From: a virus
Taxonomy: Duplodnaviria > Heunggongvirae > Uroviricota > Caudoviricetes
Direction: 5' to 3' (one strand)
Length of the DNA stretch: 5,364 bases
Virus record (IMG/VR): IMGVR_UViG_2875713109_000006
Shown: positions 1 through 5,364 of the stretch, piece by piece
Layout: each line of letters begins with the position of its first letter
How positions within the stretch are numbered: position 1 is the stretch's first letter
The notes under the pieces: generated by a model
Database searches by the model: none
What the model saw: only the letters and a program-made list of their open reading frames with translations
What the model was told of the DNA's origin: nothing
Program-made: the position numbers and the translations under genes

Positions 1-276
1 AAGATACCTAGCATAAAGAATGATTGATTTTTGAATGATCTATTTTATGATTTATTGCAATAAAATCCAAGCCATCTATATGGTAAATTGCCATAAAATC
101 AATCAGTTCAATAAATCAGGCTGAAACACGACTTCGATATAACATCAAAGAAAATAAAAATAATATATATAAATCATAAAGATAGAATACTCACAACAAC
201 CTTATCCCCACGAAAAACTGATAAACACTGAAATTCTTTTCAATCTTTTCAGTTTGGGTTTTCCGCAAAGCCACCA
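1..276. other. AT-rich non-coding tract with short repeated motifs (AAATCA, ATGAT) and one near-DnaA-box TTATCCCCA at 202..210
   Basis: All six frames are dense in stop codons. The only ATG-initiated ORF (35..124, 29 aa) has no Shine-Dalgarno and low-complexity composition. Base composition is visibly more AT-rich than the adjacent coding DNA. TTATCCCCA matches the DnaA box consensus TTATNCACA at 8 of 9 positions. Confidence 0.5.
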
Positions 277-342
277 GTGCTGGCGCGAGATGACAGTCTG
301 GTTTGTAGAAAAATAAAACTGAAAAAATTTATCGATCCAGAA

Positions 343-360
343 ACCGCAGGCGGGTGCGGT
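343..360 (-). terminator. Candidate stem-loop (ACCGCA / 6-nt loop / TGCGGT), possible weak terminator for the leftward early operon
   Basis: Perfect 6-bp inverted repeat 343..348 / 355..360. On the - strand the stem is followed by UUUCUGG and, a few nt later, by U-rich runs; the U-tract is not contiguous with the stem, so a classical intrinsic terminator is doubtful. Confidence 0.25.
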
Positions 361-370
361 GTAGTGCCGT

Positions 371-400
371 TTTTGTCTGCGAAAGATTTATTTTGTCTGC
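371..400. repeat. Exact 10-bp tandem direct repeat TTTTGTCTGC (371..380 and 391..400), 20-bp periodicity
   Basis: Read directly from the sequence: ttttgtctgc-gaaagattta-ttttgtctgc. It lies in the non-coding stretch downstream of the exonuclease gene. Confidence 0.6.
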
Positions 401-554
401 ATGTGGCTACCTCAGAGCGTCGCTGTGAATTTGATCTTATTGCGGTGTCGCAGTGGTTACCCGCGATCGTTTTTTCGCAGTTCGGCCTTTTTCTGGCCAG
501 CCACTACTGCATCAAGGTATTTCGGCGCAATCTTTATCGTGTGGATTTTGATTG

Positions 555-1259
555 TCATTTTGCACCGCCTTCTGCAATAGCAAGGATCACACCAAGCGTC
601 AGATTGCAGTCATACAACGCTCTATGTGGTGCACCTTCTCCGGCATCAACCTTAAGCGCCGCCGCTGCATCCACAAGTCGTTTCCAGCGGGTTTTACGGC
701 GTACAACATCCCATTCACCGTTATAATCTGCGTACAGCTGCATTACGCACTCAGGGGTGCATATATCCTCATGCTGTTCATAATCCCCACCAGACTGGCG
801 CAACATACGCGCATCAAATTTTGCGTTATATGCGACCCAGCCTTTACTTGTTAACTCCAATACTTTCGGCAGAATTTCCAACCATGATGGTGCATTAGCA
901 ACCATTTCATCCGTAATACCGTGAATTGCAGTTGCCGCTTCTGGAATAGATTTCGATGGCTTGACCAGCGTATTAAGCAAAACGTAACCAGCACAGTCGA
1001 TGATCGAAATTTCTACAATTTCATCATCAAATCCTAGTCCTGTGGTTTCTGTATCAAGAATGACAAAGCCCTTATCAATCCAGCGCTTTGCTATCTGTTG
1101 TTCGGTTTCCAGACGGTCGGAAAAATACAGAGACTGATCGGTGATCCTCCAACACTGGCGAATCACATCGCGCAACGAAGCCCCTTCTTTAGCTCTGGCA
1201 CCAGAAACCACCCCACCCAAAATGGCCGAAAAAAGTTGATTGCGAGTGCTCAATTCCAT
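555..1259 (-). CDS. DnaQ-like (DEDDh) 3'-5' exonuclease with an N-terminal extension of roughly 60 aa
   Basis: The translation contains the three exonuclease motifs in the right order: [10 protein letters not shown] (Exo I), [10 protein letters not shown] (Exo II), HRALYDCNL (Exo III-epsilon, H-x-A-x-x-D). ATG at 1259..1257 is preceded by AAAGGCGG. The ORF track starts at an in-frame TTG at 1280, which would add 7 aa. The gene overlaps the stop of the upstream 77-aa ORF by 10 nt. Confidence 0.8.
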
Positions 1260-1483
1260 GCCGCACCGCCTTTGCTGCAAATCGCTGCGGCTTCTTCGCG
1301 GATTAACTCAACGATTTCCGTTGCGCTTAAACCTTCATTGGCCGCATGAGTGGCCAGCTTATCCAGACGGGTGGAACACAGATCAGCTGCTGCGGCTTTA
1401 CCTTCCTGCGTGGCTTTGGTGAGCATGGCCAGCAGGTCGGTGCCTGATTTTGTTGCGGGTAAATCCTGACGTGTCATGTGCAT
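1250..1483 (-). CDS. Hypothetical small alanine-rich protein (77 aa)
   Basis: ORF with ATG at 1483..1481 preceded by AAGGAAA at about 7 nt spacing. Its stop overlaps the exonuclease start, suggesting translational coupling. No motif recognised. Confidence 0.55.
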   Translation of the reverse strand: MHMTRQDLPATKSGTDLLAMLTKATQEGKAAAADLCSTRLDKLATHAANEGLSATEIVELIREEAAAICSKGGAAWN

Positions 1484-1512
1484 TTTGGTTTCCTTAAGGC
1501 AAAAGAATCCCC

Positions 1513-1531
1513 GGCCACTTGAACCGTGGCC
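1513..1531 (-). other. Stem-loop GGCCAC / 7-nt loop / GTGGCC in the 67-nt gap between orf133 and orf77
   Basis: Perfect 6-bp GC-rich inverted repeat. On the - strand transcript it is followed by GGGGAUUCUUUUG, an imperfect U-tract. It is the only sizeable intergenic gap in the otherwise tightly packed leftward operon. Confidence 0.3.
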
Positions 1532-1550
1532 AAAAAATTCAGGCTGTTAA

Positions 1551-1952
1551 TTAGTGAAAAGTGGGTTGTACTGTGGCGGCTGAGTAGTTCGGTGCCGGAA
1601 TCAGGTGCAGCTCATAGGTTATCCGCCACCACTCCTGGATCAGCGCTTTTATCTCGCCAACGCCCAACGCCCCGGCTGTATAGAAAATTGCACGAATCCC
1701 CGCCAGCGCTTCTATCTGGGCTTCTTTGCTTTTCGCTTCGCGATATACGCAGCACCAGAAAGCAGCATTGATCGCCAGCCAGTGACGCGGATTTGTCATG
1801 TGTTCAGTGTCGTTGAAGAAGAACGGATGCAAAGCGATACGCCCATTTTTACTGGTGCTTTTCTCTGCAAACGCTAATGCGTAGTTATGCGGGACGCCCC
1901 ACACAGCCAGCTCTGCCCCTAGTGATTTACCTTCAACCGAAATAATGGACAT
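1551..1952 (-). CDS. Hypothetical protein (133 aa), translationally coupled to the upstream gene
   Basis: Its ATG (1952..1950) overlaps the TGA of the 142-aa ORF by one base (TGATG), with AGGGGAA 8 nt upstream. No motif recognised. Position is syntenic with the fil/dhr region of phage 186, but identity is unproven. Confidence 0.6.
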   Translation of the reverse strand: MSIISVEGKSLGAELAVWGVPHNYALAFAEKSTSKNGRIALHPFFFNDTEHMTNPRHWLAINAAFWCCVYREAKSKEAQIEALAGIRAIFYTAGALGVGEIKALIQEWWRITYELHLIPAPNYSAATVQPTFH

Positions 1953-2380
1953 CAGTGATTCCCCTGTTGCTGTAACTTCTGGACAATATGAGGTGCAACC
2001 ACCATCTGCACCCCGCTGCTGCTATAAATTGGATGAACCTTCTTGATTGGGCGGTTCGCGGTACGTTTCGAAAAATCGCTGTCACGTAAACTGCCGAAAC
2101 CTTCAAACGTTAACCGCGCCCGTGAAATGCCCTGGCGCAGTTGAATCATGTCCCGATAGCCCAGGCGTTCATAAAGCTCACGCCAGCAGCACTTGCTTAA
2201 ATGGGCTTTAAATGCCCCGGTACCAGAAGTAACCGCAGCAGCATGAAGTACTACGCCGCGCCACTCCGGTGTCAAGTTGTCCCACCATTCAGCGGCCTCG
2301 CTGCTTTCGCTGAAGTATTTGCGGCGGATCTGTTTTAAATGCTCCAGCCCGCGCTTTTGCTGTTCCTGGCTAATCGCCAT
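1952..2380 (-). CDS. Hypothetical protein (142 aa)
   Basis: ORF with ATG at 2380..2378, starting 9 nt after the stop of the 57-aa ORF. Same strand and tight spacing as the flanking early genes. No motif recognised. Confidence 0.6.
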   Translation of the reverse strand: MAISQEQQKRGLEHLKQIRRKYFSESSEAAEWWDNLTPEWRGVVLHAAAVTSGTGAFKAHLSKCCWRELYERLGYRDMIQLRQGISRARLTFEGFGSLRDSDFSKRTANRPIKKVHPIYSSSGVQMVVAPHIVQKLQQQGNH

Positions 2381-2389
2381 AGCGTCCCC

Positions 2390-2563
2390 CTATAGCCCCA
2401 TCAGACGACGCCACCACGGGCGACGCGGCTGCTGGCCATTGAATTTGTACATGTGGCCAGGGTTCCAGCGCTGACCGTTCGGCAGTTCAATCCAGCCCGT
2501 TGAACCACTGGGCAATTGCATGGCCGGTGATTCGTTTTTCAGGTAAGTGACAAACGCTTTCAT
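2390..2563 (-). CDS. Hypothetical small basic protein (57 aa: MKAFVTYLKNESPAMQLPSGSTGWIELPNGQRWNPGHMYKFNGQQPRRPWWRRLMGL)
   Basis: Not in the supplied ORF track (below its length cut-off); translated by hand. ATG at 2563..2561 is preceded by GAGGGAGA at 3 nt spacing and lies 9 nt after the cII stop. Stop TAG at 2392..2390. Confidence 0.45.
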   Translation of the reverse strand: MKAFVTYLKNESPAMQLPSGSTGWIELPNGQRWNPGHMYKFNGQQPRRPWWRRLMGL

Positions 2564-2572
2564 GGTTCTCCC

Positions 2573-3076
2573 TCACATCAGGCCGGTGGCGTTGGTTGTG
2601 ACCAGATCCACCGCAGCGGCCAAAACCGGCGCAGAGTGAATACGGCTTTCAACGGTATAAGCCAGCACGGATAAGCTACGGATTGCATCTCGGGCACGAT
2701 CCAGAATTTGAGTACGGCGGGCGGCGGTCATATGACCAGCTGATACGGCTTCCCCAGCAATCGCGCCCACACTGGCTGTGGCGCTCAGTGCACACAGTTG
2801 CATGTTGCCTTCTGTTGCATTGTTCACCGGTACGGATGGAAGGCAGTTAATCTGCCCCAGCATCCCATCCAGTAAACGCGCATCTTCGGTGTAATCCGTG
2901 ATAGCCAAAAGTTCATCACAGGTCAGGCGGTGCGGTTGCGCTGGGTTCAGTTTATTACGCAGGATCTGTGGCCTCATACCAACGGCAGCGGCCACATCTT
3001 CAAGATTGTGCTCAATTGCAAATGCTCGGCAAGCCGCATCAAAGTGCGCATGTTTAGAGGTCTGGTAATCAAACAT
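2573..3076 (-). CDS. cII: CII-like transcriptional activator (167 aa), phage 186 CII family
   Basis: N-terminus MFDYQTSKHAHFDAACRAFA and the internal LRNKLNP-QPH segment match my recollection of phage 186 CII, which is of similar length. Strong RBS GGGAGAGG 6 nt upstream of the ATG. Located directly downstream of the Apl-like gene, as in 186. Confidence 0.75.
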   Translation of the reverse strand: MFDYQTSKHAHFDAACRAFAIEHNLEDVAAAVGMRPQILRNKLNPAQPHRLTCDELLAITDYTEDARLLDGMLGQINCLPSVPVNNATEGNMQLCALSATASVGAIAGEAVSAGHMTAARRTQILDRARDAIRSLSVLAYTVESRIHSAPVLAAAVDLVTTNATGLM

Positions 3077-3106: not shown

Positions 3107-3328
3107 TTACGCTTTAAGCGAAATGTCACATTCGCTTAAAGCCTGAATAGTGAGCGCGGCCATGTTGACTTCGACCAGGCCTTTCTTCTGCTTACCCTTC
3201 GGCTTAATAGGTAATTTCCCGTATTCGATCAGGTTCCTGGCGGTTTCTTTGTTGGTACCAGTACGGCGGCAATACTCGTCTAAAGGCAGGTATGGCTCTG
3301 GGATGATGATTGTAATGTTCGGACGCAT
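3107..3328 (-). CDS. apl: Apl/Cox-like small HTH protein (excisionase / lytic-side repressor), 73 aa
   Basis: First gene of the leftward operon, divergent from the repressor gene. ATG at 3328..3326 is preceded by GGAG at 8 nt spacing. The N-terminus MRPNITIIIPEPYLPLDEYCRRTGTNKETARNLIEYGKLPI aligns in register with my recollection of the P2 Cox N-terminus. The ORF track extends it to a GTG at 3388 (93 aa); the true start is unresolved. Confidence 0.65.
   Translation of the reverse strand: MRPNITIIIPEPYLPLDEYCRRTGTNKETARNLIEYGKLPIKPKGKQKKGLVEVNMAALTIQALSECDISLKA
3111..3142. promoter_or_regulatory. Perfect 12-bp inverted repeat GCTTTAAGCGAA / 8-bp spacer / TTCGCTTAAAGC inside the last 11 codons of apl
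   Basis: Read directly: gctttaagcgaa-atgtcaca-ttcgcttaaagc. It encodes ALSECDISLKA on the - strand and is not followed by a T-tract on either strand, so it is not a terminator. It lies about 280 bp from the switch. Confidence 0.4.
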
Positions 3329-3447: not shown

Positions 3448-4026
3448 GTGAATCTACAAATTGAGTTTTCTCATGGCGGAGCTGAGGTACTAGATAGAGT
3501 TATCCAAGCGTATGGATTCAACACAAAACTAGCCCTAGCCGAACATCTTGATATAGCAAGCAGCAGTCTGGCTAACCGGTATAAGAGGGATTTTTTTCCA
3601 GCTGATATCGTTGTTAGATGTATGGCTGAAACAGGAGCTACTCTGGAATGGCTTGCGACTGGACAAGGTAGAAAGTTTAACGATGACGAATTAGACATCA
3701 TGAAATTGCCACGCAAGAAGATTGTGGACGGAAAACTCTATGAGTCTGGTTTCCTAATGCTCGATAAGGTTACTTTTTTACCTGGCAAACCTTTACCGCA
3801 GAATCCTATCTGTGTGATTGATAACACAATGCAATACATTGTTGATCAACACTTTACTGAAGTTTATGACGATGTTTGGCTTGTCGAAGTTGAAGGTAAA
3901 ACCAGCGTTAGAACACTAACACGCATCCCTGTGGGAAAAGTTAGAGTAAGCGGCGTAGGTATGGCTTTTGACTGCGGTATTGACGATATAAAAATCATCG
4001 GCCGCATTGTTCTGACGATTGAATGA
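3448..4026 (+). CDS. cI: CI-type immunity repressor (192 aa), phage 186 CI family
   Basis: Length and N-terminal region (VLDRVIQAYGF...LDIASSSLANRY) match my recollection of 186 CI (192 aa). N-terminal HTH-like segment followed by a C-terminal domain. GTG start at 3448 with AAGGT about 10 nt upstream; there is no in-frame ATG near the N-terminus. Directly upstream of and co-oriented with int. Confidence 0.75.
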   Translation: MNLQIEFSHGGAEVLDRVIQAYGFNTKLALAEHLDIASSSLANRYKRDFFPADIVVRCMAETGATLEWLATGQGRKFNDDELDIMKLPRKKIVDGKLYESGFLMLDKVTFLPGKPLPQNPICVIDNTMQYIVDQHFTEVYDDVWLVEVEGKTSVRTLTRIPVGKVRVSGVGMAFDCGIDDIKIIGRIVLTIE

Positions 4027-5235: not shown

Positions 5236-5364
5236 ATGAATGAGTTCAAGAGGTGTATGCGCGTGTTTAGTCATTCTCCCTTTAAAGTACGGTTAATGCT
5301 GCTCTCTATGTTGTGCGATATGGTCAACAACAAACCGCAGCAAGATAAACCTTCCGATAAATAG
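5236..5364 (+). CDS. Small ORF (42 aa: MNEFKRCMRVFSHSPFKVRLMLLSMLCDMVNNKPQQDKPSDK), function unknown
   Basis: ATG at 5236 is preceded by a consensus AGGAGG (5226..5231) at 4 nt spacing. The TAG stop is the last three bases of the window. No motif recognised; it may be a host gene at the prophage junction or a phage moron. Confidence 0.4.
   Translation: MNEFKRCMRVFSHSPFKVRLMLLSMLCDMVNNKPQQDKPSDK

Follow-up and report, generated by a model that had tools for sequence, protein, structure and literature searches.

In phages 186 and P2, the first early-operon gene after a terminator-like element encodes a small protein of the Pfam family DUF2732 (Orf79 in 186, Orf80 in P2), and in 186 the early lytic operon slot between this gene and replication gene A holds Orf81, a stand-alone exonuclease domain of 194 residues that is parted from Orf79 by a DksA-like zinc-finger gene. 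The 186 record labels orf79-orf84 'unknown function; not essential', and P2 possesses the DUF2732 gene and no exonuclease. The closest folds among described enzymes are those of Escherichia coli ExoX (PDB 4fzx) and of the epsilon subunit of DNA polymerase III (Pol III; DnaQ; PDB 1j53), which within the Pol III core carries a clamp-binding motif and a C-terminal alpha-binding segment. Here we describe a locus of this kind in IMG/VR virus record IMGVR_UViG_2875713109_000006 (Caudoviricetes), a stretch of 5,364 nucleotides that we call the window, in which one end of a 186/P2-type (Peduoviridae) prophage carries a 77-residue open reading frame (ORF) directly followed by a gene for an exonuclease with an N-terminal extension. 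The exonuclease is, on sequence comparison, the counterpart (orthologue) of 186 Orf81, and we give slightly better than even chances to the reading that it serves as an ExoX-like 3'-5' DNase cargo of the early lytic operon. As such the finding is real but ordinary, being a member of an exonuclease family known since the phage 186 sequence, placed beside a gene of the P2 Orf80 family.

Both ORFs that an initial annotation had drawn from the letters of the window are real and lie on the minus strand where it placed them, with the start of the exonuclease now moved. Its listed frame (555-1280) opens at a TTG and would encode 241 residues, while an alternative ATG at 1259-1257 gives 234; this ATG is almost certainly the true start rather than the upstream TTG, because RefSeq uses it, homologues begin there (MEL... 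or MS...) and no other methionine precedes residue 119. The protein matches Pfam RNase_T (PF00929) at 73.6 bits against a cut-off of 24 (E 3.6e-20, residues 66-223 of 234), and the three exonuclease motifs that the annotation had called intact are so: Exo I (D69/E71, in DTETTG at 69), Exo II (D149, in YNAKFD at 144) and Exo III (H212/D217, in HRALYD at 212) align to the motifs of epsilon and ExoX, with all five catalytic residues invariant or nearly so in 71 homologues. An AlphaFold2 model built from 71 sequences (predicted local distance difference test, pLDDT, 91.8; predicted template modelling score 0.86) places the 234-residue protein in the RNase H-like exonuclease fold, closest to Pol III epsilon and ExoX. 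Taken together, this is a stand-alone and probably active DEDDh enzyme, and the gene is already annotated '3'-5' exonuclease' in RefSeq. Two cysteines, C171 and C218, are also invariant across all 71 family representatives, the latter being the residue after catalytic D217 in an HRALxDC motif common with ExoX.

Family assignment was evaluated against phage and cellular profiles. The protein matches phrog_192 ('DNA polymerase exonuclease subunit') at E 3.7e-52, and BLASTP aligns it to 186 Orf81 (NP_052286.1) at E 1e-56 with 50% identity over residues 52-233, while the nearest solved proteins by sequence are the Thermotoga maritima PolC exonuclease domain and E. coli ExoX (E ~1e-13), followed by epsilon. 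With ExoX it shares the Exo III motif HRALYDC; it differs in its N-terminal extension, in a longer insert separating Exo II from Exo III and in the absence of the ~55-residue C-terminal region of ExoX. We rejected an assignment as Exodeoxyribonuclease X proper, as the ExoX equivalog NF005937 scores 72 bits against a cut-off of 202, matching only profile positions 3-151 of 220, so that the architecture is not full-length. Pol III epsilon proper (DnaQ) was likewise rejected, as the epsilon equivalogs stay far under their cut-offs (TIGR01406, 55.8 vs 222.7; NF004316, 54.3 vs 196) and nothing lies beyond the exonuclease domain: the chain stops with the last helix of that domain, aligned to epsilon residues up to ~181, and in contrast to epsilon it has neither a clamp-binding motif nor a C-terminal alpha-binding segment. 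When the full-length alignment was scanned against genome contigs, the matches listed were mostly distant DEDDh genes from Chloroflexota, Cyanobacteria and others.

The Orf81-type family is widespread, reaching from P2-like to N15-like and even filamentous phages. Among N15-like phages it occurs in phiKO2 (L091, 3474-4082), N15 and VP882, and in phiKO2 the exonuclease gene comes next in order after that of the Q antiterminator and has a DNA methyltransferase downstream. It is also present in small Vibrio elements and in the filamentous Vibrio inovirus VP24-2_Ke (7.2 kb, single-stranded DNA; L092, 1136-1714), where it lies just upstream of the rolling-circle replication initiator. Presence across N15-like phages, an inovirus and P2-like phages favours a general DNA-end activity or a host-directed function over a step tied to one replication mechanism.

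The initial annotation had further reported about 60 residues ahead of Exo I that it could not assign, and alignment to epsilon and other DEDDh exonucleases bears this out, with 68 residues preceding D69 against ~11 in epsilon and ~5 in ExoX. No match to a known structure spans more than ~172 residues, so the N-terminus of the exonuclease falls outside every known structure. Residues ~52-65 form a helix common to the whole phage family (Q.A.RWL..N, ~52-64) just before Exo I, and therefore only residues ~1-50 are specific to a subfamily. The AlphaFold2 model predicts two helices in this region (5-20 and 29-46; pLDDT 78-94), which we refer to as the helical hairpin, and R6, F10, W37, D41 and Y45 are invariant within the subfamily that bears it. 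By comparison, 186 Orf81 begins at the family-wide helix, so that the window protein carries ~45-50 extra N-terminal residues.

Homologues fall into several length classes. Proteins of ~186-198 residues begin at the conserved helix before Exo I, those of ~212-217 residues (Yersinia) have a shorter and different N-terminus, those of ~226-247 residues carry the helical hairpin, and those of ~281-314 residues possess C-terminal additions. The hairpin class accounts for 22 of the 71 representative clusters (E. coli, Kluyvera, Lelliottia, Trabulsiella, Erwinia phage EtG). The extension thus proves to be the usual N-terminus of a recognisable subfamily, an outcome that the initial annotation had named as speaking against its view, and this defined variant can be compared with the short form to learn the role of the extension. 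In Serratia and Yersinia members (P0026, P0072, P0089, P0116, P0120) an addition of ~90-120 residues sits at the C-terminus in place of the N-terminal one, one of them with a match to Pfam PF24720. Since additions are N- or C-terminal by lineage, the exonuclease core appears to gain different appendages in different lineages.

Searches with the extension itself recovered little beyond the family. A phmmer search with residues 1-52 against 1.84 billion representatives returned only fragments of the same protein, plus P0122, which we rejected as a homologue of the hairpin since its score is an artefact: 16 identical tandem repeats each contribute a weak match of 37 residues. A 16-sequence profile of the extension matched nothing in PDB or Pfam, in line with the initial annotation, which could not assign it, and found no free-standing copy as a separate ORF in the loci examined. 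The extension is, as far as alignments can tell, a genuine, conserved, subfamily-specific add-on, neither an annotation artefact nor a domain common to other proteins. A putative clamp-binding motif in the hairpin was also dismissed, as 'QLF' at residues 8-10 is not conserved and homologues carry EFF or EVF. In one IMG/VR relative, an unrelated 3'-5' exonuclease (Rv2179c-like, PF16473, E 5e-11; L016, 3317-3916, plus strand) lies in tandem directly upstream of the hairpin-bearing exonuclease.

The neighbouring 77-residue ORF, with 16 alanines in its 77 residues, belongs to DUF2732 (PF10809, 46.9 bits vs a cut-off of 25; phrog_128), and BLASTP relates it to 186 Orf79 (E 5e-7) and P2 Orf80 (E 4e-8). 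It shares with these two proteins the Pfam family, a length of 74-77 residues and the position as first early-operon gene after a terminator-like element; it differs from them in that identity is only 32-36% and in its C-terminal tail, KGGAAW(N/Q), which is specific to the Enterobacteriaceae subgroup of the window. A terminator-like hairpin between orf133 and the DUF2732 gene stands where 186 has tR1 and where P2 has its putative terminator before Orf80, and given this equivalence the DUF2732 gene and the slot after it would lie behind a conserved transcription checkpoint. The gene is a core gene of the early lytic operon and not an accessory of the exonuclease.

This conclusion bears on a claim of the initial annotation, namely that overlap between the exonuclease start and the stop of the 77-residue ORF implies coupled expression and possibly a two-protein unit. 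The overlap itself is as described: the exonuclease ATG sits inside the last DUF2732 codons and the two frames share 10 nucleotides. The pairing is another matter. In the window the exonuclease follows DUF2732 directly, unlike in 186, and in 186 and phage EtG alike the zinc-finger gene intervenes, even as the EtG exonuclease bears the same extension; in phage ESSI2_ev040 a 100% identical DUF2732 precedes a short, 51% identical exonuclease that has no extension. Labelling 80 IMG/VR exonuclease loci with seed hidden Markov models, we found that the gene directly upstream of the exonuclease was the zinc-finger gene in 21, DUF2732 in 5 and DUF3850 in 3, with no DUF2732 detected at 56 of the 80 loci and one locus having the exonuclease ahead of DUF2732. 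Hairpin-bearing viral loci had an adjacent DUF2732 in only 2 of 9 cases, both identical to the window, and across 5,426 complete E. coli genomes the DUF2732 allele of the window occurs in 30 and its exonuclease allele in 5.

What follows DUF2732 in close relatives is variable, and how it follows is not. Among sister E. coli prophages whose DUF2732 genes share at least 94% nucleotide identity, the next gene is the window exonuclease, a short exonuclease (strain 573), the DNA methyltransferase gene Dam (strains 1919D3 and Br_190) or, after a short gap, RepA (strain mip270_05). The DUF2732 codons for KGGAAWN contain a Shine-Dalgarno-like AAGGCGG and the exonuclease ATG, and the aligned junctions share AAAGG(C/A)GGTGC(G/A)GC-ATG-G, such that whichever gene comes next takes its ribosome-binding sequence and its start codon from the KGGAAW(N/Q) codons. 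The 10-nucleotide overlap is the same for the long exonuclease, the short one and Dam. As the same junction precedes different genes, the overlap is a generic junction and gives no evidence of a two-protein unit. Judging from these alignments, the KGGAAW(N/Q) tail marks a recombination boundary for cargo exchange. In all, 5 of 9 operon junctions are overlaps, which elsewhere in the operon include exonuclease/DUF3850, DUF3850/Dam, Dam/A and orf142/orf133. Coupled or closely linked translation of DUF2732 and the exonuclease is therefore a plausible part of the original claim, and its specificity to the exonuclease does not stand: with overlaps common in the operon and the junction generic, coupling says nothing specific about a complex.

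The slot itself, in relatives, is empty (one relative) or holds Dam; the zinc-finger gene and Dam; exonuclease, DUF3850 and Dam; or the zinc-finger gene, exonuclease and DUF5405, with or without a PAPS-reductase-like gene or DUF3850. At P2-like loci Dam very often lies directly after the exonuclease. Placement upstream of gene A was judged from the intact relatives EC101 and ESSI2_ev129 in comparison with 186, gene A being deleted in the window. Seen this way, the DUF2732 end would be a generic translational docking site for interchangeable cargo, which aids the reading of accessory slots in Peduoviridae prophages.

We interpret these observations as follows. The exonuclease occupies a slot of changing cargo, flanked by the core gene DUF2732 on one side and gene A, for rolling-circle replication, on the other. 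Its transcription would start at the early lytic promoter and its translation at the Shine-Dalgarno sequence and ATG inside the last DUF2732 codons, a junction that any occupant of the slot would use. The enzyme would be a metal-dependent, ExoX-like 3'-5' exonuclease that shortens single-stranded or frayed DNA from its 3' ends, and its substrates would presumably be phage or host DNA intermediates of replication, recombination or repair, early in lytic growth. Overlap with host exonucleases could make it dispensable, and the helical hairpin most likely packs on the core, where it may tune stability, substrate access or partner binding. The initial annotation had named absence of a deletion phenotype as a result that would speak against its own view, and the 186 orthologue is recorded as not essential.

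Several points weigh against this DNase interpretation. Literature searches found no biochemical or genetic test of the Orf81 exonuclease family, and only the closest proteins of known structure suggest a preference for DNA over RNA. N15-like phages and a filamentous single-stranded DNA phage, which replicate differently, also carry members of the family; this leaves room for a host-directed function, and the frequent position of the exonuclease next to a DNA methyltransferase would suit a cargo cluster directed against restriction or defence just as well.

The main rival, akin to an idea that the initial annotation had kept open, builds on these last points, holding that the exonuclease, with Dam and the ASCH-like gene, forms early anti-immunity cargo that destroys a nucleic-acid component or signal of host defence, with retron msDNA, DRT cDNA, CRISPR prespacer 3' overhangs and linear or cyclic oligonucleotide messengers as candidate targets. 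We regard this as unlikely, if worth keeping in view. A swappable accessory slot beside DNA methyltransferases in P2-like phages and phiKO2, a non-essential 186 orthologue and a family spread over phages with unrelated replication modes, including an inovirus, are all consistent with it, and recent papers show that DNA-based defences interact with nucleases. Set against this, no homologue shown to counter defence turned up in the literature, the enzymes most closely related are DNases with housekeeping roles, and the PADLOC match is to a generic Cas-associated DEDDh domain and a candidate PDC-S48 domain only, with no specific system component; more broadly, nothing was found in the literature on DUF2732, 186 orf81 or an anti-defence role of phage DEDDh enzymes. 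A more specific form, to which we assign a lower chance still, is that the DUF2732-gene A stretch may be a plug-in slot for early counter-defence cargo that docks on the Shine-Dalgarno sequence and ATG at the DUF2732 end, with the exonuclease removing a DNA-based immune molecule or signal (retron msDNA, DRT cDNA or prespacer 3' ends) and the hairpin retargeting it to a particular substrate or host protein. A defence gene expressed in the lysogen was considered and rejected, as the exonuclease is read from the early lytic strand, a scan of the stretch from pR to its start showed no promoter-like site, and in 186 the corresponding genes are part of the pR transcript.

Other roles appear less probable than these. 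Processing of RNA 3' ends in the manner of RNase T or ERI, alongside the downstream ASCH-like 'RNA-binding' protein, seems quite improbable, as DNases (ExoX, epsilon, and the exonuclease domains of PolC and DinG) come closest to the protein in sequence as well as in fold and DUF3850 is often absent or elsewhere, lying after gene A in P2 and being missing from the 186 region shown. Slightly less credit is due to DUF2732 as a dedicated partner of the exonuclease, for instance a theta/HOT-like stabiliser that perhaps docks on the hairpin, and we rate it very improbable. Such a partnership would draw on the 10-nucleotide overlap with its likely translational coupling, on the roughly theta-sized DUF2732 protein with its three predicted helices, and on phage P1, whose theta homologue HOT binds epsilon (PDB 2ido). 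It is hard to reconcile with the loci described above, where DUF2732 occurs without an exonuclease (P2), stands apart from it (186, EtG), precedes a hairpin-less one, opens through the same junction into Dam or is followed by RepA, and where neither allele counts nor gene order tie the two together. Comparison of DUF2732 with theta/HOT by hhalign gave a probability of 0.2% (with an approximate theta query), no PDB sequence matched, and Foldseek returned nothing at E<=0.001 for what is a poor model (pLDDT 64). The role that we disfavour most, and hold to be very improbable indeed, is that of a replisome proofreader replacing or supplementing host Pol III epsilon in phage replication, given a protein that ends at the exonuclease domain without the clamp-binding and alpha-binding elements and scores far below the NCBIfam epsilon cut-offs.

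Placing the locus in its host, we found the window to be 100% identical to the E. coli PSS-07 chromosome at 3122702-3128065, with the prophage integrated between mntS and mntR. That the exonuclease is phage-encoded, as initially annotated, agrees with its position in a 186/P2-type early lytic operon, whose features are collected below.

Table. Coordinates of genes and sequence features in the 5,364-nucleotide window
Feature	Position	Strand	Remarks
DUF3850 (ASCH-like) gene, first 33 codons	460-558	-	ATG 558-556; RefSeq pseudogene
Deletion junction	458-462	unstranded	5-bp microhomology TACCC; blastn of window 1-700 against relatives
Exonuclease coding sequence	555-1259	-	early lytic operon; 234 residues from ATG; stop TGA 557-555
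Exonuclease catalytic codons	D69 1055-1053, E71 1049-1047, D149 815-813, H212 626-624, D217 611-609	-	
Coding region of subfamily-specific N-terminal extension (residues 1-52)	1104-1259	-	from alignments and model
DUF2732/exonuclease junction	1250-1272	-	Shine-Dalgarno-like AAGGCGG 1272-1266; exonuclease ATG 1259-1257; DUF2732 TGA 1252-1250
77-residue ORF (DUF2732)	1250-1483	-	early lytic operon; PF10809, phrog_128, RefSeq WP_052924610.1
Terminator-like hairpin and T-run	1508-1536	-	in the 67-nucleotide gap orf133/DUF2732; sequence scan
orf133	1551-1952	-	early lytic operon; phrog_3935
orf142	1952-2380	-	early lytic operon; phrog_33841
fil	2390-2563	-	early lytic operon
cII	2573-3076	-	early lytic operon
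cox/apl-like	3107-3328	-	early lytic operon
cI	3448-4026	+	
int	ends 5068	+	
mntS (host gene)	5236-5364	+	

Downstream of the exonuclease, its stop overlaps the start of the DUF3850 gene as ATGA, and the latter, intact in the EC101 and ESSI2 phages, is truncated by a deletion. By blastn, the counterpart of window 1-462 in the intact EC101 prophage lies at its far end, ahead of a gene for DprA-like cargo, and the window from 458 onward matches the DUF3850 gene, such that ~23.9 kb of the EC101 prophage, comprising Dam, gene A and the genes for structure and lysis, is absent from PSS-07. The PSS-07 prophage is a remnant. Its sequence is 100% identical to EC101 wherever it is retained, and the deletion is therefore recent; with the replication and structural genes lost, no burst would be inducible from it.

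Two further features of the remnant deserve mention. The operon genes orf133 and orf142 have no Pfam or NCBIfam match; in 186 the corresponding position is held by dhr, and both genes are conserved throughout this group of E. coli prophages. At the other end, the AT-rich start of the window (1-400, GC 0.34) runs into a three-gene cargo block at the far prophage end beside mntR, which encodes a DprA-like protein, a 437-residue hypothetical protein and DUF6680 (L002, 4956-8000; L090, 9676-12708) and is kept in the remnant; this block could be a lysogenic-conversion or defence module.

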